Source: a virus
Lineage: Duplodnaviria; Caudoviricetes
Reading direction: 5' to 3' (one strand)
IMG/VR virus record: IMGVR_UViG_3300043469_000446
Location: 1 to 25,120 of that record
Length of the DNA: 25,120 nt
A program made the position numbers and the translations under genes. Shown one piece after another: positions 1 to 17,633 of this stretch. The notes under the pieces were generated by a model. It worked only from the letters and a program-made list of their open reading frames with translations. It searched no databases and had not been told where the DNA came from. The number at the start of each line of letters is the position of its first letter. Within the stretch, counting starts at the first letter, position 1.

Positions 1-1
1 T

Positions 2-202
2 ACAGGCGAGTTTAATGGAATGATTGCTGGTAATGCGTGGGGTGCTTTCAATGCACTAACTGAACGCCTTGATTGGTATCGTTCTGCTCGTGGTGGTTCT
101 AACGAATCTATCCTTGCAAGCGCAAGTGGTTTTGACCCTGCTATCAACGCAGAAAAGAATCGTTTGCTAAAAGTTGTGCAAAATGTTTTGCAGATTGCAT
201 AA
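2..202 (+). CDS. DUF932 / phage-plasmid LGT-type protein, C-terminal part (5' truncated by window)
   Basis: Frame is open from the window edge. The motif GNAWGAFNALTERLDW is typical of the DUF932 C-terminus. Confidence 0.7.
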   Translation, partial: TGEFNGMIAGNAWGAFNALTERLDWYRSARGGSNESILASASGFDPAINAEKNRLLKVVQNVLQIA

Positions 203-210
203 ATAAAAAA

Positions 211-238
211 GTTCCTGAGCAAGAATAAAAACTGCTCA
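211..238 (+). other. Small H-type pseudoknot/hairpin just upstream of tRNA-Asp
   Basis: GTTC(211-214) pairs with GAAT(223-226), and TGAGCA(216-221) pairs with TGCTCA(233-238). The two stems interlock around an A-rich loop. Confidence 0.45.
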
Positions 239-246
239 CCTTAATT

Positions 247-320
247 GGTCTGTTAGAATAGTTGGTTAGTTCGCCACCCTGTCACGGTGGAGGTCACGGG
301 TTCAAGTCCCGTACAGATCG
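247..320 (+). tRNA. trnD: tRNA-Asp(GTC)
   Basis: Acceptor GGTCTGT/ACAGATC; anticodon arm CCACC-CTGTCAC-GGTGG; T arm ACGGG-TTCAAGT-CCCGT; discriminator G; no encoded CCA. Confidence 0.95.
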
Positions 321-373
321 CAAGAAATTTTCGAAATTGTGATATAAAACACACTTTACGATTACGTAACAAG

Positions 374-402
374 TTGCATTTTTCCACGATTTCGGCTACA
401 AT
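374..402 (+). promoter_or_regulatory. SigA/sigma70-type promoter, leaderless
   Basis: TTGCAT-17-TACAAT with ATG 6 nt downstream (409). Confidence 0.7.
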
Positions 403-408
403 TAGTAT

Positions 409-564
409 ATGACTACCACTACAAAACCATACACCATAGGCGAACTCGTAGATGAAATCTACAATGACAACTACTCACATCTTGAATTCATGGATAACAT
501 GGGTGGAGACTGTGACTGCGTAATACATACCACCATGCAAACTATCTTAGAATACTGGGGATAA
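409..564 (+). CDS. Hypothetical small protein (51 aa)
   Basis: MTTTTKPYTIGELVDEIYNDNYSHLEFMDNMGGDCDCVIH...EYWG*; directly follows a promoter. Confidence 0.7.
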   Translation: MTTTTKPYTIGELVDEIYNDNYSHLEFMDNMGGDCDCVIHTTMQTILEYWG

Positions 565-566
565 CA

Positions 567-719
567 ATGTTAGGTTATACTGAAACAGATATTGCAGTAA
601 TGACAGATGCAATGGAAGACGCTATCAAATCAGGTAGACTCTCTGATGAAATCACAGATGGCCTGGAGAAGGCTATGTCTTTCTTTGATGGCCTATGGTC
701 AGAAGGGTACTTTGACTAA
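567..719 (+). CDS. Hypothetical small acidic protein (50 aa)
   Basis: MLGYTETDIAVM...FFDGLWSEGYFD*; TAATG coupling to the next gene. Confidence 0.7.
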   Translation: MLGYTETDIAVMTDAMEDAIKSGRLSDEITDGLEKAMSFFDGLWSEGYFD

Positions 720-943
720 TGTGGAACTGGACTAAGTATGATTATCTATGTACTGACTGTGATGCATTGATTGAGATAACTACCCTGAAAGATAGGTCTG
801 AATGTTTTCAACCTCTTTGCACCTGTGGATCTGTTAATGTAATTAATATTGGGGTATCAGACGGCAATGCTCCCCTCTTTGAACCTGTGATTGAAGTCAC
901 ACCCCCACAACTTGTAAAAATCAACACCAACCCGTATACTTAG
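719..943 (+). CDS. Zinc-ribbon protein
   Basis: YDYLCTDCD...CTCGS Cys pairs. Confidence 0.7.
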   Translation: MWNWTKYDYLCTDCDALIEITTLKDRSECFQPLCTCGSVNVINIGVSDGNAPLFEPVIEVTPPQLVKINTNPYT

Positions 944-947
944 TATT

Positions 948-1112
948 ATGAACAACATTATATATACCCGATTTGCCACCTTTACTGATTACGACTGCAC
1001 AGTCTGCAAAAATAAACTTAATGTTGATGAAGCAGATAACTTTATGTTATGCCATGGATGTTATTGTGAAGTCTTTGACCCTGCCCTAAGAGAGTCATCC
1101 CAATGGACCTAA
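948..1112 (+). CDS. Small Cys-rich protein (54 aa)
   Basis: CTVC...CHGC; preceded by TTGTAA(912)-17-TATACT(935). Confidence 0.6.
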   Translation: MNNIIYTRFATFTDYDCTVCKNKLNVDEADNFMLCHGCYCEVFDPALRESSQWT

Positions 1113-1264
1113 ACATTTTACGAGAGTACTTAAAAATTCACCTGATTAGCCTTCAACAAGACCTAGAGAAGATTGACTATGTAAATGGACATCATTTCTA
1201 TAAGATTAAAGAAGCAGAGATTGATACCGTACTACATATACTAGGAGTAATGGATGAGCGATAA
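1103..1264 (+). CDS. Hypothetical protein (53 aa)
   Basis: MDLNILREYLKIHLISLQQDL...; overlaps both neighbours in operon fashion. Confidence 0.65.
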   Translation: MDLNILREYLKIHLISLQQDLEKIDYVNGHHFYKIKEAEIDTVLHILGVMDER

Positions 1265-1493
1265 GTATCCTTTCATACCCGAATATTTAGTGAAGTCACT
1301 TGAAGATGTGACTATCCCATTAATTGATGTTATCCACGGCTACCTAAAGGTTGAAATGCTGGAGACAGAAGAAGTCATGGACGGAGACAATGACGATAGA
1401 TTTTTGGAAGGGTACCTACAGGCCTTGACAAATACATATGTCATGACCTATAATTTATCTATAGACCGCAAACACATAGAGGAGAAGCAATGA
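1254..1493 (+). CDS. Hypothetical acidic protein
   Basis: ORF track; GGAG Shine-Dalgarno upstream; ATGA overlap with the next gene. Confidence 0.75.
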   Translation: MSDKYPFIPEYLVKSLEDVTIPLIDVIHGYLKVEMLETEEVMDGDNDDRFLEGYLQALTNTYVMTYNLSIDRKHIEEKQ

Positions 1494-1708
1494 CCCCGCA
1501 AGAAATGTTAGAACAGATGATTGACAAGGCAACCTTTGATTTCCTTGGCATTGCAAAGGAAGAAGAAGATGGCGGCTACTCAGACGCAATGCTATCTATG
1601 GAACGCACATATGCTGATGGCTTTGTAGAAGGTTTGTCAGCAGCCTACCACCTTGTTTATGATAAGGAATATATTTCATCTGTAGCATTGGATGAATCAG
1701 ATGAATAA
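1490..1708 (+). CDS. Hypothetical acidic protein
   Basis: ORF track; GAGGAG SD; YADGFVEGL motif. Confidence 0.75.
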   Translation: MTPQEMLEQMIDKATFDFLGIAKEEEDGGYSDAMLSMERTYADGFVEGLSAAYHLVYDKEYISSVALDESDE

Positions 1709-2147
1709 CGAACGCTTCATTGAATTGACAGAAGAGGAATGGTTTGACACTTATAAACCTATTAAGAATCACATTGAGGTTACCTCTTCATTTGATGGCC
1801 ACATGTTTGAGACCTATGGCCCTGAAGTAGAATTCGTTAAGTCACAGGACACTGATAAGATATGGATGTTTGGTGACGGAGACGACGGTGGCATGTACAT
1901 CTGGAGCGGTTGGGGATTTGTTAACCGCATAGGATATTTTATTACTGAGGTGCCTTGTCCACCTGACACGACCATTCAGATTCAAGTTGGGGTACCTTGG
2001 TATTACTGCGAGAACTGTGATTCAGAGTTAGAGGACCCTGATAATATTATTAGAGATGCATTTCAAGAAGTTGATTTGGAAAAATGCCCTAACTGTGCTA
2101 CCCTTGAAGAAATGAAACTTACAGGACTGGAGACCCAAAATGCCTAA
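1692..2147 (+). CDS. Conserved-looking phage hypothetical protein with C-terminal zinc ribbon
   Basis: FETYGPEVEFV...GWGFVNRIGYFITEVP core followed by CENC...CPNC. Confidence 0.8.
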   Translation: MNQMNNERFIELTEEEWFDTYKPIKNHIEVTSSFDGHMFETYGPEVEFVKSQDTDKIWMFGDGDDGGMYIWSGWGFVNRIGYFITEVPCPPDTTIQIQVGVPWYYCENCDSELEDPDNIIRDAFQEVDLEKCPNCATLEEMKLTGLETQNA

Positions 2148-2286
2148 CTATGAAGTTGAAGTAATCTTTGAACCCACTGGCCACTTTATGAATTTTACAT
2201 ATGAGGCTGAATCAGATAATGAGAAAGACCTCTGCAATGAAGTATTAAACCAATTATCAATTGTATCTTGGAAGGTAGACGAATAA
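2140..2286 (+). CDS. Hypothetical protein (48 aa)
   Basis: MPNYEVEVIFEPTG...SWKVDE*; GGAG SD; TAATG coupling. Confidence 0.7.
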   Translation: MPNYEVEVIFEPTGHFMNFTYEAESDNEKDLCNEVLNQLSIVSWKVDE

Positions 2287-2648
2287 TGGGAGCACGTATT
2301 AATTTTGTATTTAAAGACCGTGAAGACAAGCCTGCAGTAGTGCTATACAGTCACTGGGGTCAGGATGAATGGCAGCGGGACCTAGCAATGGCGTTAGACC
2401 ATGCACGGCCACGTTGGGGCGATGAGTCATACCTAACACGTATGGTTATTAGTTATCTTATGCAAGATAGTATTCTAGAGTCAACAGGTTTTGGCATTTA
2501 TGCTATTAATGATACATCGTCTGACCTAGGTGATCAAACCGTTATTGTTGACATTATTCAGGAAGTAGTTATTGACGGCAACGTTAAGGCTGATTGGGAC
2601 CTATTTGTACAGGCGTATAAGCCTGTCGCTGCGCTAGTGGGGGAGTAG
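2286..2648 (+). CDS. Phage hypothetical protein (LYSHWG motif)
   Basis: MGARINFVF...VLYSHWG...RWGDESYLTRM; start reassigned to the coupled ATG at 2286. Confidence 0.8.
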   Translation: MGARINFVFKDREDKPAVVLYSHWGQDEWQRDLAMALDHARPRWGDESYLTRMVISYLMQDSILESTGFGIYAINDTSSDLGDQTVIVDIIQEVVIDGNVKADWDLFVQAYKPVAALVGE

Positions 2649-2666
2649 GGTCACTCTCGCACTTAC

Positions 2667-2710
2667 GGTGGGGGGCGAACTGTGGTGGGTTGCCCTCCAC
2701 CTTTCTTTTT
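2667..2710 (+). terminator. Intrinsic terminator
   Basis: GGTGGGGGGC...GCCCTCCACC stem followed by TTTCTTTTT. Confidence 0.75.
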
Positions 2711-2718
2711 GGTATAAT
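2690..2718 (+). promoter_or_regulatory. SigA-type promoter overlapping the terminator
   Basis: TTGCCC-17-TATAAT, then SD GAAGGGG and ATG at 2736. Confidence 0.6.
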
Positions 2719-2735
2719 GGATAGAAGGGGACTAA

Positions 2736-2972
2736 ATGACTTTTAGGATTAGTAAGGGTATAACGCCAGAAGAGCGTGTTGCCATGAGAATTAAAACTAT
2801 CATAGAAGACCTGAACTTAGACCTTGACCAGACAGGAATTATGTTGGCAAGGGTATTGCCACACTTGACATACAATAGATTAATTGCTATGATTGAGAGT
2901 GCCCAGTATGAGAAAGAGGGTATCTTAGACCCTAACCTACAGAGAGAGCGGTGGAGAAGTGGACTTTGGTAA
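2736..2972 (+). CDS. Hypothetical protein
   Basis: ORF track; promoter and SD upstream. Confidence 0.75.
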   Translation: MTFRISKGITPEERVAMRIKTIIEDLNLDLDQTGIMLARVLPHLTYNRLIAMIESAQYEKEGILDPNLQRERWRSGLW

Positions 2973-3228
2973 GATTGCTATTATCCTTTCACAGATTAAT
3001 ACAGACGCATTAGAGTTAGAAAATGTAGAGTATCTACCTTCAGAGTTTTGGGTAGACTTTGAGGACGGGCTAGGTCTTGCAGACTTTGTTGCTGGTAGTT
3101 GGGCAGAGCCTACAGACATGGGCAAGTCACAGTTAGAATTGGTTTGGCGTACTCTTTGTGACATTAGAGAGATTGACCCTGAGACAATGTATGACTCACC
3201 TGCTGACTTTTTCAAGGCACAGGTATGA
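2959..3228 (+). CDS. Hypothetical acidic protein, paralog of 3225-3503
   Basis: MDF...IL...DGLGLA pattern shared with the downstream gene; GGAG SD. Confidence 0.7.
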   Translation: MDFGKIAIILSQINTDALELENVEYLPSEFWVDFEDGLGLADFVAGSWAEPTDMGKSQLELVWRTLCDIREIDPETMYDSPADFFKAQV

Positions 3229-3503
3229 CAGACTTTGCAACCCAGTGTGTAATCCTGGGGGAGTTATATGAAGGCTATAAAGAAGAAAAAGATTTCAGGG
3301 CATTCATAGAGTTTAACGATCTTGGTTTACCATTAGCATATCTAACTGCCCAGGGATTAGTTGTAGAGGTTTCAGATGATGGACGCAGATACATTGCTGA
3401 TACATTTGAAATGTTTCTTAAGTCTATTAAACTAACTGAAGATGACATTATTGAAGGCATGACCCTTGATGAGGTTTTAGAAATGGCTGCTGCCGAAGAC
3501 TGA
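3225..3503 (+). CDS. Hypothetical acidic protein
   Basis: FIEFNDLGLPLAY motif; ATGA overlap. Confidence 0.8.
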   Translation: MTDFATQCVILGELYEGYKEEKDFRAFIEFNDLGLPLAYLTAQGLVVEVSDDGRRYIADTFEMFLKSIKLTEDDIIEGMTLDEVLEMAAAED

Positions 3504-3513
3504 GATTTTTCGA

Positions 3514-4036
3514 CAAACCTTTCAACCATCAAACCTTATTACGAATCGAAGATATTTTTCCCAGGATTCTAGACATTACGAACGATCTAAAAATTTTGCA
3601 GGATTCTAGCATATCAAACCTTACATGTCAAACCTTTATATATCAAACCTCTATATCCAAAAGCCAGAATGTATGGTTTGTTATTCCTATAGGGGTATTA
3701 CGAACTCTCTTATTTATCCCCCGCCCTGCAATGATTCATAATACTATCAGACATTCTGCAGCGGGGGATCAGAAGATATACCAAACCCCACAGTATAAAA
3801 GACATTACGAAGGACATATATTTTTCCCTGGATTCTAGAATATTATCAAACCTTTATAGATTTTTATGTAAGGTTTTCTACATTTTTCTCACATTTTCCA
3901 CAGGTTTTATATAGGGTTTTGTTATCAAATTGTTATCAAATATACTTGACAATATAGAGGTTTGGGAGTATAATCCAGGCAAAGGTTTGATATGTAAGGT
4001 TTGGGGATGTGAGGTTTGGCCGCTGTGACATTACGA
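3514..4036. repeat. Non-coding repeat/palindrome-rich element
   Basis: 3x 35-nt ATTACGAA-N18-GGATTCTAG (3538, 3575, 3804); 7x CAAACC and 5x GGTTTG; inverted repeats 3615-3637/3981-4003 and 3644-3656/3952-3964; hairpin 3716-3769. Confidence 0.85.
3946..3974 (+). promoter_or_regulatory. Perfect consensus SigA promoter with no adjacent ORF
   Basis: TTGACA-17-TATAAT. Confidence 0.75.
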
Positions 4037-4123
4037 GCCCCCTCTTATAAATGCTCAATAACCCACTATCCTCCACTTTCCTCCACTCTAAGATAAATCT
4101 AAAAAATATCAGTAACATTTAAT

Positions 4124-4176
4124 TGTGGATAAACCTGTGGATAACTAACATTTTCACGGTATTGACATGTGGATAA
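4124..4176 (-). promoter_or_regulatory. Three perfect DnaA boxes (TTATCCACA on the minus strand)
   Basis: TGTGGATAA at 4124-4132, 4136-4144 and 4168-4176. Confidence 0.7.
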
Positions 4177-4196
4177 CTGTGTGATATCCTTGATGT

Positions 4197-4319
4197 ATGA
4201 CCTGTACAAAGTATGGCTGTGACTATGAACTAGACCTTGATGGTCAGGTAACATGTACTGTTTGTGGGGCTATGGATGATGATAGCCAACCAGTAAACCT
4301 TGAGGAAGACTTTAAATGA
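4197..4319 (+). CDS. Small Cys-rich protein (40 aa)
   Basis: MTCTKYGC...CTVCGAM; TTGACA(4162)-17-TATCCT-6-ATG. Confidence 0.6.
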   Translation: MTCTKYGCDYELDLDGQVTCTVCGAMDDDSQPVNLEEDFK

Positions 4320-4402
4320 AACCTTTTCTAATCATTATGCTAGGCATATTCCTATTCTTAAACTACATGGCCTATCTTCAACAAATCCGTATGTCTGGAT
4401 AA
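4316..4402 (+). CDS. Small membrane peptide (28 aa)
   Basis: MKPFLIIMLGIFLFLNYMAYLQQIRMSG; ATGA overlap; GAGG SD. Confidence 0.5.
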   Translation: MKPFLIIMLGIFLFLNYMAYLQQIRMSG

Positions 4403-4407
4403 ACCAG

Positions 4408-4725
4408 TCAAACCTCTTTAATCGCCTTATTAACCATACGGATCAACATTCTCCTGGTTACTTTACTTGCATCAAATGTCTCCGTATATCCCCCATGAGG
4501 CATTTGCTCTTTAGTTAGATAGTATCCGTATCTATCCCTTAGTGTTCTTAGTACTATAGTTTCTACTTCTTTTGCCTTATACCGTTCAAAAAAATGCCAA
4601 TACTTAATTAAGATCCAACCATGCTGTCTGTGGCTTGCAAACCTTTTACCTGAGATATCTGATATGCCTATCTTAATAGCCCTGTGTGTTGGACTGTATA
4701 ATAAATATAAGACTGCTTGCTCCAT
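4408..4725 (-). CDS. GIY-YIG-like / T5orf172-type nuclease-domain protein
   Basis: LYLLY...IKIGIS...KRFASH...AKEVE...GGYTETF; TATAAT 6 nt upstream of ATG 4725. Confidence 0.75.
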   Translation of the reverse strand: MEQAVLYLLYSPTHRAIKIGISDISGKRFASHRQHGWILIKYWHFFERYKAKEVETIVLRTLRDRYGYYLTKEQMPHGGYTETFDASKVTRRMLIRMVNKAIKEV

Positions 4726-4752
4726 GCATACATTATAGGCTATACTAAGGCT

Positions 4753-4917
4753 ATGCCATCCAAAAAGGAAAAACAGGATTTGCAACAACAATATTTTCAG
4801 AAAGTAAGATTAAATAATAAAGAACTCTGGAGCCTATGTTATATATGTTCTAAACCCAGACATTGCTTTGATACTGTAGAGAATATCCCTATGCCTGTGT
4901 GTAAGGAACACTGTTGA
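4753..4917 (+). CDS. Small Cys-rich protein (54 aa)
   Basis: CYIC...VCKEH; TATACT(4741)-6-ATG. Confidence 0.6.
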   Translation: MPSKKEKQDLQQQYFQKVRLNNKELWSLCYICSKPRHCFDTVENIPMPVCKEHC

Positions 4918-4948
4918 TATACCGTTTCAAATTTGCTATAATAATAAC

Positions 4949-5182
4949 ATGACGTATGTAATTACAGAAGCATGCATGGATGTGATGGATAAGTCCTGTA
5001 TTGAGGAATGTCCAGTAGACTGTATTAAAGTTGGTAAAAATATGCTTTATATTGATCCAAATGATTGCGTTGACTGTGGTGCTTGCGAGCCTGTGTGTCC
5101 CGTTGAAGCCATCTATTACGAAGATGATGTCCCTGCTAACCTTGAGCATTATAAGGATATTAATAAAAACTTCTTTGCTTGA
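4949..5182 (+). CDS. fdxA: 7Fe ([3Fe-4S]+[4Fe-4S]) ferredoxin, actinobacterial FdxA type
   Basis: MTYVITEACMDVMDKSCIEECPVDCI...YIDPNDCVDCGACEPVCPVEAIY; TTGATA-17-TATAAT-6-ATG. Confidence 0.95.
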   Translation: MTYVITEACMDVMDKSCIEECPVDCIKVGKNMLYIDPNDCVDCGACEPVCPVEAIYYEDDVPANLEHYKDINKNFFA

Positions 5183-5213: not shown

Positions 5214-5786
5214 ATGGATACAAAGGTTTGTCGTAAATGTCTTATAGAGTCTTCTGTAGACAATTTCTACAAGAACTCTGCAAAGTGCAAGCCCTGTGCC
5301 AAAGAGTATGCTAAGGCTTGGGCAAAGGCTAATCCAGAGAAGTATAAGATTCAATGGCAAAAGAAAAATAAAAGTCGTTGGGTACAACAAAAGCAAGATC
5401 AAGCCTATATGCTTAAAAAGGCTATCTATCGTCAAGAAAATAGTGCAAGGCGTGTGGCTACGGCTAAGGCTTGGAATCAAGCAAACCGTGAAAGATTTAC
5501 CCTTCATGTAGCAAACTCTCATATTAAACGTAGGATAGCCAAAGATGCTAGAACCTATAAAATATTAGATAAAGAATACAAAAGGCTATATAACTCTCCC
5601 TGTGCTTTTTGCGGTGCCACAGAAAAGATTACGATGGATCATATTATTCCCATATCTAGGTCGGGAAACCACTCAATTGGAAATCTACAGCCTCTCTGTA
5701 GGAGATGTAATTCAAGTAAAAAGAGTAGGCTTGTCTCAGAGTATAAATACTATTTGAGCAAGTTGAAGTCTGTTAACCAAGGGTGA
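5214..5786 (+). CDS. HNH endonuclease
   Basis: N-terminal CxxC pairs; CAFCG...MDHIIPISRSGNHSIGNLQPLCRRCNSSK; TTGACA-17-TAGACT-6-ATG. Confidence 0.92.
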   Translation: MDTKVCRKCLIESSVDNFYKNSAKCKPCAKEYAKAWAKANPEKYKIQWQKKNKSRWVQQKQDQAYMLKKAIYRQENSARRVATAKAWNQANRERFTLHVANSHIKRRIAKDARTYKILDKEYKRLYNSPCAFCGATEKITMDHIIPISRSGNHSIGNLQPLCRRCNSSKKSRLVSEYKYYLSKLKSVNQG

Positions 5787-5867: not shown

Positions 5868-6011
5868 ATGACAAGCCAAGAAATTTCCGAACTACTAAAC
5901 AAAGAATCCTATCGCATTTGGGACACTACTAAGGTTATTAAAAATCAGGACTATCATGATGGTCTGGTCCGTGGTCTAAAAATGGCTGCTATTTTAGTTG
6001 GTAAACTATGA
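5868..6011 (+). CDS. Hypothetical protein (47 aa)
   Basis: MTSQEISELLNKE...DYHDGLVRGLKMA; leaderless start. Confidence 0.7.
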   Translation: MTSQEISELLNKESYRIWDTTKVIKNQDYHDGLVRGLKMAAILVGKL

Positions 6012-6187
6012 GCCTAGATGATATGTTATTGCGAGAAGAAATTGCAAGGGCTATTGAAGCAATACCTCTTGGTGAAGAAAATGCTCAACTAAATGCAGTT
6101 GGTATGCGTATGCTTGCTGCAAAGGTTGCAAGAGGACAAAGCAACTACATAACAAGCATGTTTGAAAACCAGTTAGATTTTGAGTAA
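6008..6187 (+). CDS. Hypothetical protein (59 aa)
   Basis: MSLDDMLLREEIARAIEAI...NAVGMRMLAAKVARG; ATGA overlap. Confidence 0.7.
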   Translation: MSLDDMLLREEIARAIEAIPLGEENAQLNAVGMRMLAAKVARGQSNYITSMFENQLDFE

Positions 6188-6192
6188 ATAAA

Positions 6193-6402
6193 ATGTGGTC
6201 ATGGATATTAGCAGTTATTGGTGTAACAGGCATCTTCTTTGTTGGTCGTAAAACCATATGGGGATGGTTTGTCTTACTATTTAATGAATGTCTTTGGATA
6301 GCCTATGCTATTCATACAGATCAATATGGTTTTATTTTTAGTGCCCTTGCATATGCAGCAGTCTACATTAAATCTTATCTGCATTGGAAGAGAGAAGAAT
6401 GA
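6193..6402 (+). CDS. Small 3-TM membrane protein, PnuC-like half repeat
   Basis: Hydrophobic; GRKTIWGW...W..Y....QYG...Y..W pattern. Confidence 0.65.
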   Translation: MWSWILAVIGVTGIFFVGRKTIWGWFVLLFNECLWIAYAIHTDQYGFIFSALAYAAVYIKSYLHWKREE

Positions 6403-6515
6403 AACCTCAAGAATGTCTAAAGTGTGAGATGAGCCTTAAAGATCCACTATTTTGGGAACTTCATCAAACCATGACAGATAACAGGATTTGGTGTGCATAT
6501 GCTAAAAAACCTTGA
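6399..6515 (+). CDS. Small Cys-containing protein (38 aa)
   Basis: MKPQECLKCEM...WCAYAKKP*; ATGA overlap. Confidence 0.45.
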   Translation: MKPQECLKCEMSLKDPLFWELHQTMTDNRIWCAYAKKP

Positions 6516-6708
6516 AATACCTGATCCATTTCAAACTTTTATATCAAAGAAATATGCCAACGCTAAGGGCTATGTCCATGACTGGTTTACTGGAGAATGG
6601 TCTTATAAATGTTTAACTTGTAAGGATGATCTTTCTGCTCCATCCCGCAAAATATTGACAAAGATTAGATTATTTCACACACGCAATGAATGTCTTGGTG
6701 GATACTAG
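6499..6708 (+). CDS. Hypothetical protein with CxxC...H...C
   Basis: MLKNLEIPDPF...YKCLTCK...HTRNECLGGY. Confidence 0.7.
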   Translation: MLKNLEIPDPFQTFISKKYANAKGYVHDWFTGEWSYKCLTCKDDLSAPSRKILTKIRLFHTRNECLGGY

Positions 6709-6932
6709 TGACAAGGCAAGAGATGGAAGCAAAGATAGAATCATTAAAGACTCCTAAAGGTGGATGGACTAAGGCTTCCCTTGCATCTCTTGGAGTGAGT
6801 TGGCCTCCTCCTTCTGGATGGAAAGCAAAACTTTTAGATGATACAGAGTGTGAGCACACATGGTATATGCGTGAACTAGGTATACAATGTACTAAGTGTC
6901 TAGTTATATGGGAGAGCGATGAAAGAGCCTAA
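6708..6932 (+). CDS. Hypothetical protein (TPKGGWT...LGVSWPPPSGW motif) with C-terminal zinc knuckle
   Basis: TAGTG-coupled GTG start; recognisable small-protein motif. Confidence 0.7.
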   Translation: MTRQEMEAKIESLKTPKGGWTKASLASLGVSWPPPSGWKAKLLDDTECEHTWYMRELGIQCTKCLVIWESDERA

Positions 6933-7044
6933 GATAACTCAAATGGACTGGCGTAGCCTTGGTTATTGGCCTGTATGGAAAAATGGAAAGAAAGTCTGGG
7001 TACCTAAAGATGATAAATCATTCCACAAAGATACAAAGAACTAA
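6919..7044 (+). CDS. Small hypothetical protein
   Basis: MKEPKITQMDWRSLGYWPVWKNGKKVWVPK; GGAG SD. Confidence 0.5.
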   Translation: MKEPKITQMDWRSLGYWPVWKNGKKVWVPKDDKSFHKDTKN

Positions 7045-7327
7045 GACCCTTCCCCTTAGATGGATAGGTAATATATCTGGTGAGTTTGCAGGTAATCATA
7101 TAGTTAAGTGTGTCAATATGGACGAAGATCAAGAATTAGGATGGCGTTATAAATACCACGCTTTTATGTGGAAATATCTTAACAAGCCTTACGAATGGTG
7201 GGGAACATATTATATGTTAGACATGGCTGCCTGGAAAGAAGAATTAGATCAAACAAGGATAGCCATGGCAGATGAAGGCTGGGATGACTATGATACTTTT
7301 GGTAATGAGAGAATCAAAAAAGTTTGA
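7010..7327 (+). CDS. Hypothetical Trp/Tyr-rich protein
   Basis: ORF track; the start is probably MINHSTK. Confidence 0.65.
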   Translation: MINHSTKIQRTKTLPLRWIGNISGEFAGNHIVKCVNMDEDQELGWRYKYHAFMWKYLNKPYEWWGTYYMLDMAAWKEELDQTRIAMADEGWDDYDTFGNERIKKV

Positions 7328-7472
7328 AGAATTAGAAAAACCTATTAGTCTTACGGTTAAGACTAAGTGTCCAGAAAAATATTTTCTTGTAGATAGAGAA
7401 ACTGGTGATATATTTATTGGCAGCATTATGGGACATTGGGACAGATTTGAATCAGTTACTAAAAATTTCTGA
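7305..7472 (+). CDS. Hypothetical protein
   Basis: TKCPEKYFLVDRETGDIFIG motif. Confidence 0.65.
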   Translation: MRESKKFEELEKPISLTVKTKCPEKYFLVDRETGDIFIGSIMGHWDRFESVTKNF

Positions 7473-7496
7473 TAGAATAGACATGTTAGGATAAGT

Positions 7497-7598
7497 ATGT
7501 TTTGTAACTATTGTGGTAACAGATTAGAGTACGGCGATTGTAATTATTGTAATGATAATAATAATGCCCTTAGAGAATTTGAGGAAGAAGATGATTAA
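7497..7598 (+). CDS. Tiny zinc-finger-like protein (33 aa)
   Basis: MFCNYCG...CNYCN with an acidic tail. Confidence 0.5.
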   Translation: MFCNYCGNRLEYGDCNYCNDNNNALREFEEEDD

Positions 7599-7674
7599 TA
7601 TTTTATTTTTGATCCCTGCATTTATTGTTGGGTATGTAGCATGTTATTTTGTTATGACATATAAAGTTAACTAA
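7591..7674 (+). CDS. Small membrane peptide (27 aa)
   Basis: MINILFLIPAFIVGYVACYFVMTYKVN; GAGG SD. Confidence 0.45.
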   Translation: MINILFLIPAFIVGYVACYFVMTYKVN

Positions 7675-7697
7675 TAAAAAGATGGGTAAAAATAAAA

Positions 7698-8354
7698 TTG
7701 CCTAATAATAACGTAACACTCAGTTGGTGCGATAATGGATTGGTCCATGGTCAGTTTGCTGCATCTATTTCTGATCTAATAATATCAAAAGACATACCAA
7801 TAACGTCAGTAATGCAAACTGCTGGAAGTCAAATATCTTTACTAAGACAGTACACTATTACAAAATGGATGAACGAATATGAAGAAGACTGGATATTAAT
7901 ACTTGATTCAGACATAGTTGCCTATCGAGACAAAATAAAAGTATTATGGGATGTCGTACAGTCAACAGATATTAAAATAATTTCTGGATTATACTTTATT
8001 AATAAACTTGGAATAATTCAACCTGCACTATTTAATAAAGGTACTGAAAATGAGTTTATGACACCAATTTATCCAATTCCAGAAAATAAATTAATTAAAG
8101 TAGACTATGCAGGAATGGGTTGCATATTAATCCATAGAGATATAATAAAACAAATAGTTGATAAGTTAAAAACAAACATATTATTTAGAGAAGACTATAT
8201 AAATAATCAAATGGTTGGTGAAGACACTTATTTCTTTAAAATGGTAAAGGATGCTGGAATACAGTTATATGCACATACTGGTGCACATGTTGATCACATA
8301 AAGACCTATAGGTTAAATATTGGTCACTATAATAATTTAATCAACCAAAGATAG
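7698..8354 (+). CDS. GT-A fold glycosyltransferase (GT2-like)
   Basis: WILILDSD (DxD), ISGLY, AGMGCILIHR, GEDTYF, HTGAHVDHIK. Confidence 0.85.
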   Translation: MPNNNVTLSWCDNGLVHGQFAASISDLIISKDIPITSVMQTAGSQISLLRQYTITKWMNEYEEDWILILDSDIVAYRDKIKVLWDVVQSTDIKIISGLYFINKLGIIQPALFNKGTENEFMTPIYPIPENKLIKVDYAGMGCILIHRDIIKQIVDKLKTNILFREDYINNQMVGEDTYFFKMVKDAGIQLYAHTGAHVDHIKTYRLNIGHYNNLINQR

Positions 8355-8394
8355 TTATTTTGACAAATAAAAAGTTTTATGGTATTATGGTTAT

Positions 8395-9051
8395 ATGATT
8401 GAAACAGTAACCCTAGGTTGGATAGATGACGGAGAAGTTGAAGGAAAGTTTGCAGCATCTGTTGTTCATCTTTTAATGCAAAAAAGTTTACCATTATTAA
8501 ACTTAATACAAATAACAGGTAAAAATAATGCAACAGATAAAAATTCTTTAATTAATAGGTGGATTGAAACCTGCACGGATGAATGGCTATTAATGGTAGA
8601 GCCAAATGCTGTTATTTACCCACAGAGTATAGAAATAATGTGGAAGTCGGCAAAAGAAAAAAACATGAAGGTTATTTCTGGACTATTCTTAGGAATATAT
8701 GAACAAACAATATTGGTTCCAACTGTATATAATCTTAATGATGATGGAACATACTCAATGCCAGATATTGCTAAAAATACTGAAAACAAAGTAGATGCTT
8801 TTGATTTTGGATGTTTCTTAATTCATAGAGATGCAATTTTAAAAATCATGAATACAGAAAAAACCAAAACATTTTTTAAAGATGAATATTTAAATGATAT
8901 TTATATGGGTCATACTTTTTCATTTTTTAGATTACTAAAAAAAATAAATGTTCAGCCATATGTACATTCTGGTGTATTTTTAGATAGAATAAAAAAAATA
9001 ATGATACATTCAGGCCAGCAAGACATTATAAATATTAAAAATATTTTTTAG
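8395..9051 (+). CDS. GT-A glycosyltransferase paralog with degenerate catalytic motifs
   Basis: Collinear with 7698-8354 (both 218 aa), but DxD is EPN and GED is GHT; own promoter TTGACA(8360)-17-TATTAT-6-ATG. Confidence 0.8.
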   Translation: MIETVTLGWIDDGEVEGKFAASVVHLLMQKSLPLLNLIQITGKNNATDKNSLINRWIETCTDEWLLMVEPNAVIYPQSIEIMWKSAKEKNMKVISGLFLGIYEQTILVPTVYNLNDDGTYSMPDIAKNTENKVDAFDFGCFLIHRDAILKIMNTEKTKTFFKDEYLNDIYMGHTFSFFRLLKKINVQPYVHSGVFLDRIKKIMIHSGQQDIINIKNIF

Positions 9052-9059
9052 GAGTAGAC

Positions 9060-9779
9060 ATGTCTCAAATTATAAACTTTAAGGCTAAAGATAAATTTGG
9101 CTTTGATACACAACTAAAGCCACACCCAGCATCTAAGTCAATTCCAGATTGGTATAAAAATGCACCCATTTATGAGCCAGCACCAAACAACCTTGATGGT
9201 AAAAAACTATCAATATTTAATGGAACATTAAACCACTCTTTTAAAAAATGCACACCAATGCTAGAGCCATTAACATTTGGATATATAATTCCATTGTGGG
9301 CTGATGTTCTTGTTAGCCTTAAAGATGGCAGTCCTGAAATATCTTGGATGACTGAAACACAAATATTTAGCCCACATGGAGACACATCAAAAAGAGTTGA
9401 ACATCCACCTGGATATACAAATCTTGTAGTAAAGTATGTGTCAACATGGATGGCACAAACACCTGCTGGATATTCCTGTTTGATCACTAGTCCTTTTGGG
9501 TATAGAAATTTGCCATTTATGCAAATACCATCAATTATTGATACAGATAAGTCCGTTATGGAAGGATCTTTTCCTATGTGGATTAAGGCAGGCTTTGAAG
9601 GAATTGTTGAAAAGGGAACACCCCTAGTTCAAGTCATTCCCTTTAAAAGAAATGACTGGAAGTCTACATTTGATTATTATGAAGATGGAGAACATAGAAC
9701 ATTAATTGAAAAAACTTTTAAGACAACAATGTTAAATCATTACACAAAAAATATTTGGTCTAAAAAAGATTTTAAATAA
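9060..9779 (+). CDS. Phage protein of the KKCxP...GY / TPxGYS / (V/I)DTD family (DUF6065-like, possible dUTPase-like fold), copy 1
   Basis: PASKSIPDWYK, KKCTP, TPAGYSCL, IIDTDK, KGTPLVQVIPFKR. Confidence 0.8.
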   Translation: MSQIINFKAKDKFGFDTQLKPHPASKSIPDWYKNAPIYEPAPNNLDGKKLSIFNGTLNHSFKKCTPMLEPLTFGYIIPLWADVLVSLKDGSPEISWMTETQIFSPHGDTSKRVEHPPGYTNLVVKYVSTWMAQTPAGYSCLITSPFGYRNLPFMQIPSIIDTDKSVMEGSFPMWIKAGFEGIVEKGTPLVQVIPFKRNDWKSTFDYYEDGEHRTLIEKTFKTTMLNHYTKNIWSKKDFK

Positions 9780-10258
9780 TGTTAATAAACTTTCAATCAG
9801 AATCCAAGAAGTCAGGAGATGCTTTTGAAGAACTTGTATACGCAGATTTGGTTAGTAGGGGTTTTGGTCCTATTGATAGAAATTATTGCTTTGAGAATGT
9901 TGGTTGTGAAGTAGACTTTCGTGCACACTCTAAAACAACCCTTGAGTATGTTGAGGCAAAGGGTGGCCTCTCTGGTGAAGGTAAAAGACCAGGAGCACAA
10001 AGAACTGACAATGTTAAAAAAGCAATTGCTAACGGGGCATTAATAAAAACTTCTAATGATTTGTATTATGTTGTTTATTTTTCTGCCAAACCAGAACCAG
10101 GAAGTTATTCTGATAGCATGATTAAGACTGCATTAAAACATAACATTATTAATGAAGTTAGATATATAATTGATGAAACAAATATCATAAAAAATGATTA
10201 TTTTCAGAATGCTTTACATTTAGACATAGATGATGTACAACATATACAGGAGATATAA
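9779..10258 (+). CDS. PD-(D/E)XK restriction-endonuclease-like nuclease
   Basis: GDAFEELV...EVDF...YVEAKGG. Confidence 0.75.
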   Translation: MLINFQSESKKSGDAFEELVYADLVSRGFGPIDRNYCFENVGCEVDFRAHSKTTLEYVEAKGGLSGEGKRPGAQRTDNVKKAIANGALIKTSNDLYYVVYFSAKPEPGSYSDSMIKTALKHNIINEVRYIIDETNIIKNDYFQNALHLDIDDVQHIQEI

Positions 10259-10975
10259 ATGTTTACTAAAAAAAATAAAATTGTTTTTAAGGCTCAAGAT
10301 AAACATGTTATGGAAGTAAGGACTAAGCCAGTTCCTGCTACGCAGTTAGTTCCACAATGGTGGAAAGATTTACCGCCATATTTTGGAAATAATGGAAAAT
10401 TTCAATTAACTGATCAAGGTCCAAACACTACAGTTAAAAAATGCGCCCCATCATTAGATGCAATAACTTCTGGCTATATAGTTACCCTGTGGGCAGATAT
10501 ACAAGTTGAAACAAATAGTTTTGAAATTCCTACAGCAAAGTGGAATACTCAAAAACCAGTGTTTAGTATTTGGACTCAAGAACAAAGTAGTGGTTTTGAA
10601 ATTGATGAAAGTTACAACCCTCTGGTATTTAAATACCTACACGGATGGACAATTAAAACTCCACCTGGATATTCTTGTTTAATTACTCATCCTATAGGAT
10701 ATCAAAATTTACCATTCAAGGCAATTAGCGGTGTTGTTGATACTGATAAATTAAATACTGATATAAATACCCCAATTGTATTCAAAAAAGGATTTAATGG
10801 AGTAATTGAAAAAGGTACCCCAATGTTTCAAGTTATTCCTATAAAAAGAGAAAATTGGGAATCTGAGTTTGAATTACAAGAAGAACAAGAATTGTTTTTT
10901 AATCAAGAAAAAATAGCATCTACATATATTAGTTCATATGCAAGAAATTTAAGAGAAAAGAAAAATTATAAATAA
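10259..10975 (+). CDS. DUF6065-like / dUTPase-like family protein, copy 2
   Basis: VPQWWK, KKCAP, TPPGYSCL, GVVDTDK, KGTPMFQVIPIKR. Confidence 0.8.
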   Translation: MFTKKNKIVFKAQDKHVMEVRTKPVPATQLVPQWWKDLPPYFGNNGKFQLTDQGPNTTVKKCAPSLDAITSGYIVTLWADIQVETNSFEIPTAKWNTQKPVFSIWTQEQSSGFEIDESYNPLVFKYLHGWTIKTPPGYSCLITHPIGYQNLPFKAISGVVDTDKLNTDINTPIVFKKGFNGVIEKGTPMFQVIPIKRENWESEFELQEEQELFFNQEKIASTYISSYARNLREKKNYK

Positions 10976-11031
10976 AAATAATGTTGACATATTTAAACAC
11001 TTCTGAGATACCTAGAAGGTTAAAAGACTAA

Positions 11032-11105
11032 GCACCAGTAGCCAAGTTGGTTAAGGCACCGAACTCATAATTCGGCTATCGTAGGTTCAAGTCCTACCTG
11101 GTGTA
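11032..11105 (+). tRNA. trnM: tRNA-Met(CAT) (elongator Met or lysidine-type Ile2)
   Basis: GCACCAG/CTGGTGT; CCGAA-CTCATAA-TTCGG; GTAGG-TTCAAGT-CCTAC. Confidence 0.9.
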
Positions 11106-11109
11106 CTAA

Positions 11110-11183
11110 ACATCTGTAACTCAGTTGGTTAGAGTACCTGCCTTATATGCAGAGAGCCGAAGGTTCAAGTCCTTCCAGATGTA
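11110..11183 (+). tRNA. trnI: tRNA-Ile(TAT)
   Basis: ACATCTG/CAGATGT; (C)CTGC-CTTATAT-GCAG(A); GAAGG-TTCAAGT-CCTTC. Confidence 0.9.
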
Positions 11184-11187
11184 CTAA

Positions 11188-11259
11188 ATCCCTGTAACTC
11201 AGCGGAAGAGTGACACCCTTCTAAGGTGTAGGCCGTAGGTTCAAATCCTACCAGGGATG
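11188..11259 (+). tRNA. trnR: tRNA-Arg(TCT)
   Basis: ATCCCTG/CAGGGAT; ACACC-CTTCTAA-GGTGT; GTAGG-TTCAAAT-CCTAC. Confidence 0.93.
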
Positions 11260-11288
11260 CTATAATAGATTAAAACAAAGGGGTAGTC

Positions 11289-12245
11289 TTGGCTAATATA
11301 GTTTTTCTTGGTAACTTTGAAGTGTCTTATAGTAGTGAGAATCATCATGCTAGTAGTCTAGAGTCTTTAGGCCATACCGTGACAAAATTGCAAGAGCGTA
11401 AGGCTAAGACACAGACCATCCTAGAAAAAGCATTAGAGTCTGATCTGTTTATTTGGGTGCATACACATGGCTGGGAAACTGGCGGAAACATCTCAATGGA
11501 TGACGTTCTTAATAAACTTAACTCGGCTGGTGTTCCCACTATGACATATCATCTAGACTTATGGTTTGGCCTTGATAGACAAAATGATCTTAAGCATGAT
11601 AGTTTCTATAGAACTATTGGACACTTCTTTACTGTAGATAAACTTATGGCTGATTGGTTTGATCACAATACCGCAGTAAAAGGCCACTTCATGCCTGCAG
11701 GGGTATACGATAAGGAATGCTACATCCACCCAGACTATGACACACAAAACTTTGAGTACGATGTTATTTTTGTTGGCAGCAAGAGATACCACCATGAACA
11801 TAAATATCGTCCAGAATTAATTGACTTCTTAAGAAAGACATACGGAAAGAGATTCTTACATGTAGGTGGAGATGGAGATACTGGAACTATTCGTGGAGAT
11901 GCACTAAACCGTATTTATGCAAAGAGTAAGATTGCAGTTGGAGATAGTCTTAACATAGGATTTGATTATCCTTACTACACTAGTGATAGATTGTTTGAGT
12001 CTACTGGTCGTGGTGGATTTACTATTTACCCAGAAATCAAGGGCTTAGATGAATACTTTATGCCTGACGAAGTTGTATTCTACAAACATGGAAACTTTAA
12101 TAACTTGAAAGATAAGATAGATCAGTATCTTGAAAATTCTTTGGTACGAGAAAGAATCAGAGTCAATGGTCATAACCGTACAAAGAAAGAACATACCTAT
12201 GTTCATAGGTGGACTGCAATACTTGATGAGTTGGGAATAAAATGA
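11289..12245 (+). CDS. GT-B glycosyltransferase, CgeB / Glyco_trans_1_2-like
   Basis: DVIFVGS...YAKSKIAVG...SDRLFESTGRGGF...HTYVHRW; TTG start with GGGG SD. Confidence 0.88.
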   Translation: MANIVFLGNFEVSYSSENHHASSLESLGHTVTKLQERKAKTQTILEKALESDLFIWVHTHGWETGGNISMDDVLNKLNSAGVPTMTYHLDLWFGLDRQNDLKHDSFYRTIGHFFTVDKLMADWFDHNTAVKGHFMPAGVYDKECYIHPDYDTQNFEYDVIFVGSKRYHHEHKYRPELIDFLRKTYGKRFLHVGGDGDTGTIRGDALNRIYAKSKIAVGDSLNIGFDYPYYTSDRLFESTGRGGFTIYPEIKGLDEYFMPDEVVFYKHGNFNNLKDKIDQYLENSLVRERIRVNGHNRTKKEHTYVHRWTAILDELGIK

Positions 12246-13243
12246 ATATATTAATAACAGGTGTTGCTGGACTACTTGGAAGCAATCTGGCAAAAAGTTT
12301 ATCTCATCATAATATAACTGGTGTTGATAGTCTAATCGGTGGATATATAGATAACATTCCTTCAGAAATTAATTGGCTTAATAAAGACTGTAATGATTTA
12401 ACTAAGGAAGATTTTAAAGACATTGAAGTTGTTATCCATGCAGCATGTACTGCTCATGAAGGACTTTCTGTTTTTTCTCCTAAGTTCATTACTGACAACA
12501 CATACGGAAACTCTATGAATGTTTTGAGTTGTGCAATTCAGGCTGGTGTTAAAAAGTTTATATTTACCTCTAGTATGGCAAGATATGGCAACCAAGACAC
12601 GCTTCCTTTTACAGAAAATATGATACCAAAACCAGAAGACCCTTATGGTATTGCAAAAAATGCTTTTGAGTTAACATTAAAAAATCTTTCAAAAACTCAC
12701 GGTATTGAATTTGTTATTTTTGTGCCACACAACGTTGTTGGTATTGGACAAAACTATACGGATCCTTTTAGAAATGTTGCTGGGATTATGATTAACCGCA
12801 TGTTACAAAACAGACAACCAATAATCTATGGTGATGGAAACCAAAAAAGGTGTTTCTCTGACATAAGAGATATTATAGATCCATTTCATAAGGTTATTTT
12901 TTCTGATGTTGCTAACGGAGAAGTAATTAATATTGGTCCTGATGACAACTTTATAACTATTAATCATTTAGCAGAAGAAATTGCATCAATTCTTGATTTT
13001 GATTTAAACCCAATATATTTAGATTCTCGCCCATCTGAAGTTAGGTTAGCGCATTGCTCTGCAGATAAAGCAAGGAAACTACTTAACTATGAAACACGTT
13101 ATGAATTAAAAGAAATCTTATCAAATATGATAGATTGGGTTAAAATAAGAGGAACTGGACCGTTTAATTATAATTTACCAGTTGAAATCCAAAGTCATTT
13201 AACCCCAAAAACTTGGGTCAATCAAGATTTATTTAATAAATAG
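12242..13243 (+). CDS. NAD-dependent nucleotide-sugar epimerase/dehydratase (extended SDR)
   Basis: GVAGLLG, TSS, YGIAK, IYGDGNQKRCFS. Confidence 0.93.
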   Translation: MNILITGVAGLLGSNLAKSLSHHNITGVDSLIGGYIDNIPSEINWLNKDCNDLTKEDFKDIEVVIHAACTAHEGLSVFSPKFITDNTYGNSMNVLSCAIQAGVKKFIFTSSMARYGNQDTLPFTENMIPKPEDPYGIAKNAFELTLKNLSKTHGIEFVIFVPHNVVGIGQNYTDPFRNVAGIMINRMLQNRQPIIYGDGNQKRCFSDIRDIIDPFHKVIFSDVANGEVINIGPDDNFITINHLAEEIASILDFDLNPIYLDSRPSEVRLAHCSADKARKLLNYETRYELKEILSNMIDWVKIRGTGPFNYNLPVEIQSHLTPKTWVNQDLFNK

Positions 13244-13254
13244 GAGAAATAAAA

Positions 13255-13968
13255 ATGACAGAAATGAGAACAGTAATAGTTAATGGTGAGTTTGAAATTA
13301 CTTTGCCAGATCATCGTGCTGCTCGCCCTGAATGGTACGAACCTAAAGGTTGGGAAAAACCAAGACTAAGACACATGTCGGAAAATATTTCTTCTGGAGA
13401 TGTTATGTATTATGTTGGTGCAGAAGAAGGCGAGTTTGCTGCACTATGCCAAATGTGGGGTGCGGAAGTAGTTGTATTTGAACCAAACCCTAAAGTCTGG
13501 TCACACTTTCCATTGCTTTGGAGTGCAAACAATTTAGATCTTCCAATGGTTTGTATTCCTGGATTTGCATCTGATAAGATAAACAATCTTTCAAGAATAT
13601 ATTATAATGAATGGCCACCAGAAGTTAACAACGTAATTGAAGCAGCCCACGGATTTAAAGAACTATACCTTGAAGGAGAATCCTATGGTCAGATTACTAT
13701 AGATTCTTGTGTATATGATCACGGAATTAAGCCACCTACCGCCATTTCATTGGACGTAGAGGGCAGTGAGTGGAGGGTCCTAGGAGGGGCTGAGAAGGTC
13801 CTTAGAGAGCACAAACCAAAGATTTGGCTATCTGGACACCCTGAGTTTATGTTACAGCAATGGAATGAATCTTTATATAATCTTAGACAATGGATTAAGG
13901 GATTAGGTTATACTGAAATAATTTTAGACTATCAGCATGAGGTTCACTTATACTATGAATCAATCTAA
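13255..13968 (+). CDS. FkbM-family methyltransferase
   Basis: YVGAEEG, VVVFEPNP, ITIDS, ISLDVEGSEWRVLGGA. Confidence 0.88.
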   Translation: MTEMRTVIVNGEFEITLPDHRAARPEWYEPKGWEKPRLRHMSENISSGDVMYYVGAEEGEFAALCQMWGAEVVVFEPNPKVWSHFPLLWSANNLDLPMVCIPGFASDKINNLSRIYYNEWPPEVNNVIEAAHGFKELYLEGESYGQITIDSCVYDHGIKPPTAISLDVEGSEWRVLGGAEKVLREHKPKIWLSGHPEFMLQQWNESLYNLRQWIKGLGYTEIILDYQHEVHLYYESI

Positions 13969-14503
13969 AATTTTTTGGGATAACGCTGCTAAAGATCCAG
14001 ATGTAAGGTATAAATATATTGCAGATGAGTGGGCATCTACTGAAACATTTTTAAATCTTATAGAAAATAATAATGATAATTGGAATAATGTTTTAGAAAT
14101 TGGATGTGGGATAGGGAGACTGTTAGTTCCTTTAGCAGACAAGTATGATGAATGTAATTTTTACGGATTAGATATCTCTGATGAAATGATAAACCTTGCA
14201 CCTAAGAGAGATAATATAAAGTATCAAGAAGTTGGAAACAATCTTGACTTAGTATATTCAATGTTGGTCTTTCAACATATTGAGCAACAAGAAAAGACTA
14301 ACTATATAAAACTTGCATACGATAAGTTAAAAGATGAAGGTACTTTGTTTTTTCAGTTTGTTGTTGGAAAAGAAAACTCCCCATACTCTTATCAAACATC
14401 AATGCTTGAAATTGAAAACATATTAAAAGATACTGGGTTTAAGAACCTAATTTTTACAGATCACATGCACCCTCAATGGATGTTTGTTCAGGGTACTAAA
14501 TGA
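13955..14503 (+). CDS. Class I SAM-dependent methyltransferase
   Basis: VLEIGCGIGRL, GLDISDEMI, LVYSMLVFQHI. Confidence 0.9.
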   Translation: MNQSKIFWDNAAKDPDVRYKYIADEWASTETFLNLIENNNDNWNNVLEIGCGIGRLLVPLADKYDECNFYGLDISDEMINLAPKRDNIKYQEVGNNLDLVYSMLVFQHIEQQEKTNYIKLAYDKLKDEGTLFFQFVVGKENSPYSYQTSMLEIENILKDTGFKNLIFTDHMHPQWMFVQGTK

Positions 14504-17133: not shown

Positions 17134-17164
17134 AACAAAAAAGCCAGCCTATCTCTAGACTGGC
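17133..17164 (-). terminator. Intrinsic terminator between the convergent blocks
   Basis: Minus strand reads GCCAGTCTAG-AGA-TAGGCTGGC-TTTTTGTTTT. Confidence 0.75.
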
Positions 17165-17181
17165 AATCCTGTAAGTAACTA

Positions 17182-17466: not shown

Positions 17467-17474
17467 TTTTCCTC

Positions 17475-17633
17475 CTAGGATAGAACTTTTATTAGTATAG
17501 CATATCCAGCCCATAGCCCTACAATTCCTGCGACTCCCGCAAAAACTGGTGGTGCTGGAACTGGCAATTTGAATGCAGCAAATACTACACCACATCCAAA
17601 ACCTGTTAGCGTTGATAACAATATATCTCTCAT
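17475..17633 (-). CDS. xapX: XapX-domain (DUF1427) small membrane protein (52 aa)
   Basis: GFGCGVVFAAFKLPVPAPPVFAGVAGIVGLWAGY; absent from the ORF track because it is <60 aa. Confidence 0.85.
   Translation of the reverse strand: MRDILLSTLTGFGCGVVFAAFKLPVPAPPVFAGVAGIVGLWAGYAILIKVLS

Follow-up and report, generated by a model that had tools for sequence, protein, structure and literature searches.

Introduction

Among phages with described chromosome ends, the closest counterparts of the phage analysed here are the Streptomyces BE phages, in which read starts and a 2-fold step in coverage located the BE1 ends and gave repeats of ~11 kb (PMC5764925). The long repeat of phiCbK was visible as a plateau of ~2.2-fold higher coverage, and its boundary sequences are conserved in related phages (PMC3556154), and the available text on SPO1 places an early host-takeover block inside the long terminal repeat (PMC3896407). 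The entry mechanism of T5 is treated as open or descriptive in the accessible sections of two further accounts (PMC13250531; 10.64898/2026.04.02.716235).

Here we describe an element of a viral DNA stretch of 25,120 nt (IMG/VR record IMGVR_UViG_3300043469_000446, hereafter the window), which a first-pass annotation had tentatively read as a replication origin, a terminal-repeat boundary or a T5-like injection-stop signal.

Results

A gene-free element packed with oriented repeats

All coordinates that the first-pass annotation listed for CAAACC/GGTTTG were right, and the direct and inverted repeats, the promoter and the DnaA boxes that it named are all present (Table 1). Between 3504 and 4196, CAAACC/GGTTTG occurs 12 times against 0.38 expected, and at least 12 copies were reached in none of 2000 dinucleotide shuffles. 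The same interval holds five copies of ATTACGA, a word absent from the earlier list, all on a single strand (0.08 expected), and three perfect DnaA boxes (0.01 expected), with no other perfect ones in the 25-kb window. Promoter-like sites are not enriched as a class (13 found versus 9.2 +/- 2.9). The arms of the long inverted repeat are 81% complementary, the centre of the element at about 3850-3950 is AT-rich, and the TCGTAA word nearest the predicted cut begins 21 bp inside it. From its sequence, the consensus promoter is predicted to fire toward that cut.

Table 1. Features of the element and its surroundings in the window
Feature	Position	Strand	Description
Last part of the small early-type gene block	1..3503	+	Includes the end of the DUF932 gene and tRNA-Asp; predicted inside the terminal repeat
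Non-coding outer ~550 bp of the predicted direct terminal repeat (11.7 kb)	3504..4056	.	Synteny with gene-free BE ends; same TCGTAA array
Converging arrays of the lineage-specific word CAAACC/GGTTTG	3514..4018	.	CAAACC on + at 3514, 3530, 3615, 3629, 3644, 3782, 3847; GGTTTG at 3675, 3959, 3984, 3998, 4013; form long inverted repeat 3615-3650 / 3983-4018
Five TCGTAA words	3538..4036	-	ATTACGA on + at 3538, 3575, 3697, 3804, 4030; all one way
36-nt direct repeat unit	3538-3573, 3575-3610, 3804-3839	+	TCGTAA, A/T tract and CC.GG word
Consensus host-type promoter	3946..3974	+	TTGACA-17-TATAAT, 12/12 match, no gene behind; toward the predicted cut ~80 bp away
Predicted terminase cut	4056..4057	.	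Repeat edge 4056, unique DNA from 4057; cut-site profile
Core directly outside the predicted cut	4057..4120	+	CCACT x3 at 10-bp spacing (4063, 4073, 4083) and TCAGTAA at 4109-4115
Three perfect DnaA boxes	4124-4132, 4136-4144, 4168-4176	-	68-120 bp outside the predicted repeat
Second promoter-like site	4162..4190	+	10/12 match; overlaps the third DnaA box; leads into unique-region genes
HNH endonuclease gene adjoining the element	5214..5786	+	Pfam; widely kept in relatives

The description of the element as gene-free was borne out. Each of the six frames contains 8-17 stop codons, alignment of the window with 14 relatives revealed numerous frame-breaking indels, and the sole ORF crossing the core (4118-3936, - strand) lacks its ATG start in 57 of 100 relatives and is shorter than 35 aa in 85 of 100; on these grounds a protein-coding reading was ruled out. 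The same alignment showed a variable number of tandem copies of the 36-nt unit and nearly invariant columns across the core. An Rfam search of the first 8 kb of the window gave no match except tRNA-Asp at 247, and no intrinsic terminator was found in the element.

Conservation in freshwater relatives

The window encodes WhiB, tRNAs and a glycosyltransferase island, and at least half of its words are contained in 21 of the 24 listed sequencing runs, all of which are from lakes or freshwater. An actinobacterial host is inferred from WhiB and from kinship. Two relatives (G001 and G002) were recovered as complete circles of 105-106 kb, and a same-strain contig (G006) is 99.4% identical to the window. 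The terL gene lies outside the window, so terminase comparisons rest on G001, whose terminase gave 136 matches at E<=1e-40, comprising 127 Streptomyces and 9 Rhodococcus phage records and nothing else; its large subunit is 53-55% identical to the best BE TerL proteins (top 54.6%). A thermonuclease search returned only cyanophage-type matches among the matches listed.

The element occupies the same place, with modular indels, in all 18 relatives found to carry the last early gene. The comparison with relatives proposed in the first-pass annotation showed the layout recurring in about 100 related viral contigs. These were gathered as set A, with 41 distinct relatives from 52 loci after 11 short or duplicate ones were dropped, and set B, with 62 relatives from the first 80 of 120 loci after removal of 18. 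The CCACT part served as the search anchor, so its own conservation among the 103 relatives arises by selection. TCGTAA is present in 420 forward and 0 reverse copies across the 103, and lies at about +21 from the predicted cut in 98 of them. TTACTGA is kept in 39/41 and 61/62 relatives of sets A and B, and a promoter is found at +50 to +170 in 34/41 and 51/62 (85/103 in total). At least two DnaA boxes are present in 83/103 relatives, the pair being absent in the remaining 20.

Just beyond the DnaA boxes is a hypervariable gene slot (4180-5180), which in the window is occupied by an endonuclease-like gene on the - strand (4408-4791) together with a ferredoxin gene (4949-5182); the inserts differ in relatives, and some bear further TCGTAA/CAAACC words. 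A tRNA-Ile with anticodon TAT, which is rare in bacteria, is encoded at 11110-11184 and also in G001. The island at 7698-20664 comprises glycosyltransferase, methyltransferase and epimerase genes and four phrog_7084 genes. Contigs in three of four runs join 5871 to 16656, the short side of the joint being 26 nt, and some strains may lack ~10.8 kb of this island.

Correspondence with the left end of BE phages

For comparison, both ends were taken from ten BE, four BK and three Rhodococcus phage records, and each repeat was located by exact identity, which recovered the published lengths for Mildred21 and Paradiddles (PMC5764925). With the terminase set on the + strand, as in the BE orientation, the window runs reversed. 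The element then occupies the position of the BE left end, downstream of early genes that include DUF932 and GP88. These two genes of G001 (Pfam) match BE terminal-repeat genes at 42-52% in the same order, and, as in BE phages, the early genes inside the repeat read toward the gene-free end. BE left ends have no annotated gene for 870-1200 bp in nine of the ten records, the exception being Genie2 with one small ORF. An HNH gene also lies beside the same repeat edge in BE phage Wipeout (gene 252), and an Lsr2 Pfam search gave no match among the 22 G001 repeat proteins scanned.

TCGTAA is the top hexamer common to all ten BE ends, where the first ~750 bp contain 50 copies against 2.1 expected, with one copy reversed. 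Its flank in these ends (CC.GG and an A/T tract) resembles the 36-nt unit of the window, and BE genomes carry tandem units similar to that unit at +590 to +770. The word lies at +22 in two of the ten ends, and DnaA boxes are found 58-95 bp outside the end in eight of the ten phages. CAAACC is outside the top hexamers common to all BE ends, which bear other inverted words. All four BK phages have their TCGTAA cluster and DnaA boxes at a distance of 6.8-8 kb from the right end, apart from either cut, and the three Rhodococcus phages lack the TCGTAA array.

A host-type promoter without a gene fires toward the left end of Wipeout and Paradiddles (L043/L045, about 760-905), followed by a GC-paired segment of ~90 nt that may be a structured RNA; the strict promoter pattern toward the left end was found in 3/10 BE phages, and Rfam searches of five other BE ends gave only two sub-threshold chance matches.

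Two further ideas about TCGTAA were discarded. As a candidate genome-wide promoter word, it occurs elsewhere in G001 and G002 mostly inside genes and with a coding-strand bias. Top-strand copies are scarce between the array and the right end (BE, 3 versus 19.6 expected; BK, 0 versus 6.4), but avoidance of the word was dropped as an explanation since BK phages lack all TCGTAN words on this strand there and the BE top strand is the non-coding strand.

Placement of the two cuts

A left-cut profile was built from 14 BE and BK left ends (columns -14..+4) and ranks 4056/4057 first of ~1,770 window positions. The corresponding site ranks first in 35/41 relatives of set A and 28/62 of set B (63/103 in total). 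The search anchor overlaps five columns of the profile; with these five bases removed, the site is still first in the window, but the relatives in which it ranks first fall to 23/41 and 5/62. In set A the second-best site lies a further 10 bp outward. The region is therefore more certain than the individual base, and the cut may be misplaced by a few bases, or by ~10 bp in some lineages.

The right-cut profile (-8..+28) gave one clear top match each in G001, G002 and the G006 part, with scores of 21.5, 19.2 and 19.3 against next-best scores of 11.3, 8.9 and 7.2, respectively. The two sites are 11,721 bp apart in G006 and 11.2-14.9 kb apart in 16 loci. Both profile widths were chosen post hoc, because wider profiles (-45..+32, -100..+30 and -20..+8) had been tried first and ranked neither site first genome-wide.

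Contig ends were too weak to count as evidence of a cut: 2 of 132 anchored contigs (L191 and L360) stop 2-3 nt past the left cut, among 20 that end within 890 nt on that side, while no contig end coincided with the right cut among 80 listed and no contig start with the left cut among 45.

When followed from unique DNA to the cut, the two ends of BE and BK phages and of the relatives close with similar TGTA(A)TG-like words that are inverted with respect to each other, which hints that one terminase may recognise both cuts. Early promoters near the other repeat end (G001 in window orientation, 30.9-33.5 kb, in L024; L039 5900-8200) have DnaA boxes in the opposite orientation, and also bear GACACGCC words and TGTGA..TCACA-like sites. 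The GACACGCC word is likewise found ahead of early genes in BK phage Faust. At L039 5964-6084 there is an inverted copy of an early-promoter segment of ~120 bp, 80% identical to G001/G002, with a leftward promoter near the right cut.

Contig depth in lake metagenomes

All 24 runs consisted of assembled contigs, not reads, and the depth given here is contig depth. The coverage step that the first-pass annotation had suggested looking for was seen in this contig depth, which falls across or near the element in eight lake runs (four on the window and four on G006), with a plateau in four. The plateau was measured on G006 11001-31000, where in all four runs depth rises 3-5-fold at the bin with the right site and drops after the bin with the left site. 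Based on the 8 longest of 342-485 pieces per run, the median depths inside and outside were 59/20, 47/18, 21/8.5 and 20/8.2, giving ratios of 2.9, 2.6, 2.5 and 2.4. Coverage of about 2-fold over a 10-13 kb early block is thus seen in contig depth, a quantity confounded by strain sharing, as sequence common to several strains increases it too. Further peaks of summed depth occur at tRNA genes and at 16.7-18 kb. Contig depth agrees with the sequence-predicted ends and is not proof alone.

An RNA run (X22) in which the early block is deeper was set aside, as it consists of contigs and may hold DNA. A low-depth joint of L039 2405 to 16989 appears in three of four runs and may come from another organism or a repeat.

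Discussion

A predicted chromosome end

The element very probably forms the border of a terminal repeat, an option of the first-pass annotation that is well supported by homology and synteny with Streptomyces BE ends and by the depth step in lake metagenomes. The full account, in which the element is a chromosome end at the edge of an 11.7-kb direct terminal repeat and also has a role in packaging or end formation, we consider moderately probable. The evidence for an end comprises its non-coding status, motif excess and conservation, the BE homology and synteny, a matching second site 11,721 bp upstream in the same-strain contig G006 and the raised contig depth between the two.

In the proposed mechanism, the terminase would cut between 4056 and 4057, at the edge of the likely 11.7-kb repeat that contains the early genes, so that a linear chromosome has unique DNA flanked by two repeat copies. 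The element would be the extreme end of one copy, without DnaA boxes. In the other copy it would form the inner border; beyond it would come the CCACT triplet and the TCAGTAA core, then the DnaA boxes and a promoter that would lead outward to the variable genes and the HNH gene. Each genome in the replicated concatemer would carry one repeat copy, to be copied and cut at the border during packaging. The arrays would likely act as a protein-binding scaffold that forms the end, with one or more phage proteins attached to the TCGTAA units, which all face one way, and to the CAAACC words, which converge; packaging or end formation appears the likeliest role of the arrays. Transcription from the 3946-3974 promoter through the cut site would probably help, and has a parallel in the transcription-linked packaging of T7 and T3. 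The DnaA boxes are probably accessory, for example in regulating the outward promoter at 4162-4190.

The BK phages bear directly on this role. Their TCGTAA block lies away from both cuts, so the array would not be needed for cutting in these phages; this separation weakens the packaging role, not the location of the end. Since BK phages keep the block at 7-8 kb inward of the right end, the array may serve a separate function.

Alternative readings of the border

We think it unlikely that the same border works as the T5-like injection stop suggested in the first-pass annotation. In that reading the other repeat end would enter first and the ~11.7-kb early block would be expressed, while the one-way TCGTAA array and the DnaA boxes would hold up further entry until released by an early protein. 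In size the early-gene repeat does resemble that of T5, and in one of its two copies the element places non-coding repeats on the inner edge of a terminal repeat of ~10 kb. TCGTAA is strictly one-way, and the DnaA boxes face as in T5, with TTATCCACA at early promoters and TGTGGATAA at the border (positions 6121/6194 and 9510 in T5; 32184-33258 and 42256-42300 in G001). The BK block keeps its distance of 7-8 kb to the right end despite a repeat of 0.7-1.8 kb, which suits a role tied to distance and not to cutting. On the other side, searches of G001/G002 with phmmer (E<=1) and of six BE/BK end regions with tblastn (E<=0.01) gave no homolog of A1, A2, Dmp, gp007 or gp011, and the T5 injection-stop region has no TCGTAA and no CAAACC array. 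The DnaA pair is absent in 20/103 relatives and 2/10 BE phages, and lies outside the repeat here but inside it in T5; paired boxes within the repeat and in conserved inverted repeats, as in T5, were not found, and self-BLAST of G001 and G002 gave no long inverted repeat linking the two DnaA box clusters. The DnaA model for T5 is itself presented as an in-silico hypothesis in the accessible part of its source (10.1101/866236). In the sequences compared, the position of the TCGTAA array is held whichever way the neighbouring genes run, and with or without a cut there. Freshwater, BE and BK actinophages all have the array within 7-13 kb of the same chromosome end. That it serves as an injection-pause signal is a doubtful proposition; if true, it would constitute a second, A1/A2-independent system of two-step DNA entry outside the T5 family.

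A replication origin at the repeat border, where iteron-like 36-nt units, the AT-rich centre, DnaA boxes and promoter would load a phage DnaB-like helicase, seems quite unlikely. Direct repeats, an AT-rich tract and DnaA boxes make up the layout of iteron origins and are all present in the element, which therefore resembles them, although its DnaA boxes are not universal, being dispensable in 20/103 relatives. The number of tandem units varies, BK phages retain the block at a place separate from the cut, and there are origins inside the SPO1 terminal repeat. The cumulative GC skew proposed as a check shows no turn at the element in the two complete relatives; it follows gene direction, and in G001 turns ~15 kb before and 10 kb after the element, leaving the origin option of the first-pass annotation without skew support. 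Fourfold-site GC skew is alike on the two sides (-0.36 versus -0.38, from small counts). Phage skews often follow transcription, which makes this a weak test. Another candidate origin is a very AT-rich gap at G001 26539-26835 (window orientation), near a transcription divergence and a local GC-skew minimum, which is conserved in G002 and G006. It is highly improbable that the element acts mainly at the end of the early operon, in transcription control or as an RNA whose long inverted repeat folds in the transcript. Folding gave z-scores of -3.4 (+ strand, DNA) and -3.2 (- strand, RNA) with 20 shuffles each, and native arm pairs fold slightly better than swapped ones (mean -1.4 kcal/mol; 21/31 negative; permutation p 0.009, in a covariation test that ignores kinship). 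Such a fold follows simply from the inverted word arrays, neither an Rfam match nor an intrinsic terminator accompanies it, and this reading leaves the cut-site homology and the depth step unexplained; the case for a stem-loop is weak. Of the options offered in the first-pass annotation, the repeat boundary is the well-supported one.

Significance

The likely physical ends and an early-gene repeat of ~11-15 kb can now be fixed for a common family of uncultured lake actinophages, with the DUF932 marker encoded in 406 IMG/VR stretches and the right-end motif in an estimated ~390. Long BE repeats and the T5 region were already known; what appears new is a set of predicted end motifs that the lake phages share with BE and BK phages. 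In the literature, covered mostly through freely readable main texts, we found no report on BE/BK phages that describes the TCGTAA array, the flanking DnaA boxes or the cut contexts, and none on freshwater actinophages that describes these motifs or the 11.7-kb repeat. How 10-kb terminal repeats are copied and cut, and whether two-step injection occurs outside the T5 family, are old questions. The TCGTAA units and both cut contexts provide defined targets in culturable phages, and the BK phages are a natural control in which array and cut are separated.

Comparison with known systems

phiCbK and SPO1 are unrelated to the window phage and, on the accessible parts of their descriptions, are compared by repeat layout, not by boundary motifs. 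The T5 injection-stop region (Repeat Region 3; 10.1101/866236, AY543070) has no repeat words in common with the element. Two-step entry, a feature of T5, is not known to occur in actinophages.

BK phages (Stanwilliamsviridae, Loccivirinae: Faust, Gilson, Comrade, Wakanda) share both cut contexts with the window phage, and have a comparable non-coding block in which TCGTAA units occur together with DnaA boxes and inverted words; over 23 nt, the DnaA tandem of the window matches Faust. In contrast, the BK repeat is short (734-1,773 bp) and without TCGTAA, and the early genes point the opposite way from those of the window phage.

The BE phages (Stanwilliamsviridae, Boydwoodruffvirinae) have repeats of 10.4-12.8 kb, compared with 11.7 kb predicted here; the BE repeat is described in the literature, whereas the TCGTAA, DnaA and cut motifs are not (PMC5764925). 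Unlike them, the window phage is uncultured, from freshwater, ~105 kb and of lower G+C, has CAAACC instead of the BE words and a promoter ~80 bp from the predicted cut, and carries its DnaA boxes in tandem, where those of BE phages are inverted. The two groups are alike in the GP88/DUF932 early genes that run toward a gene-free end, in the orientation of TCGTAA, in both cut contexts and in DnaA boxes placed outside the repeat (8/10 BE phages).
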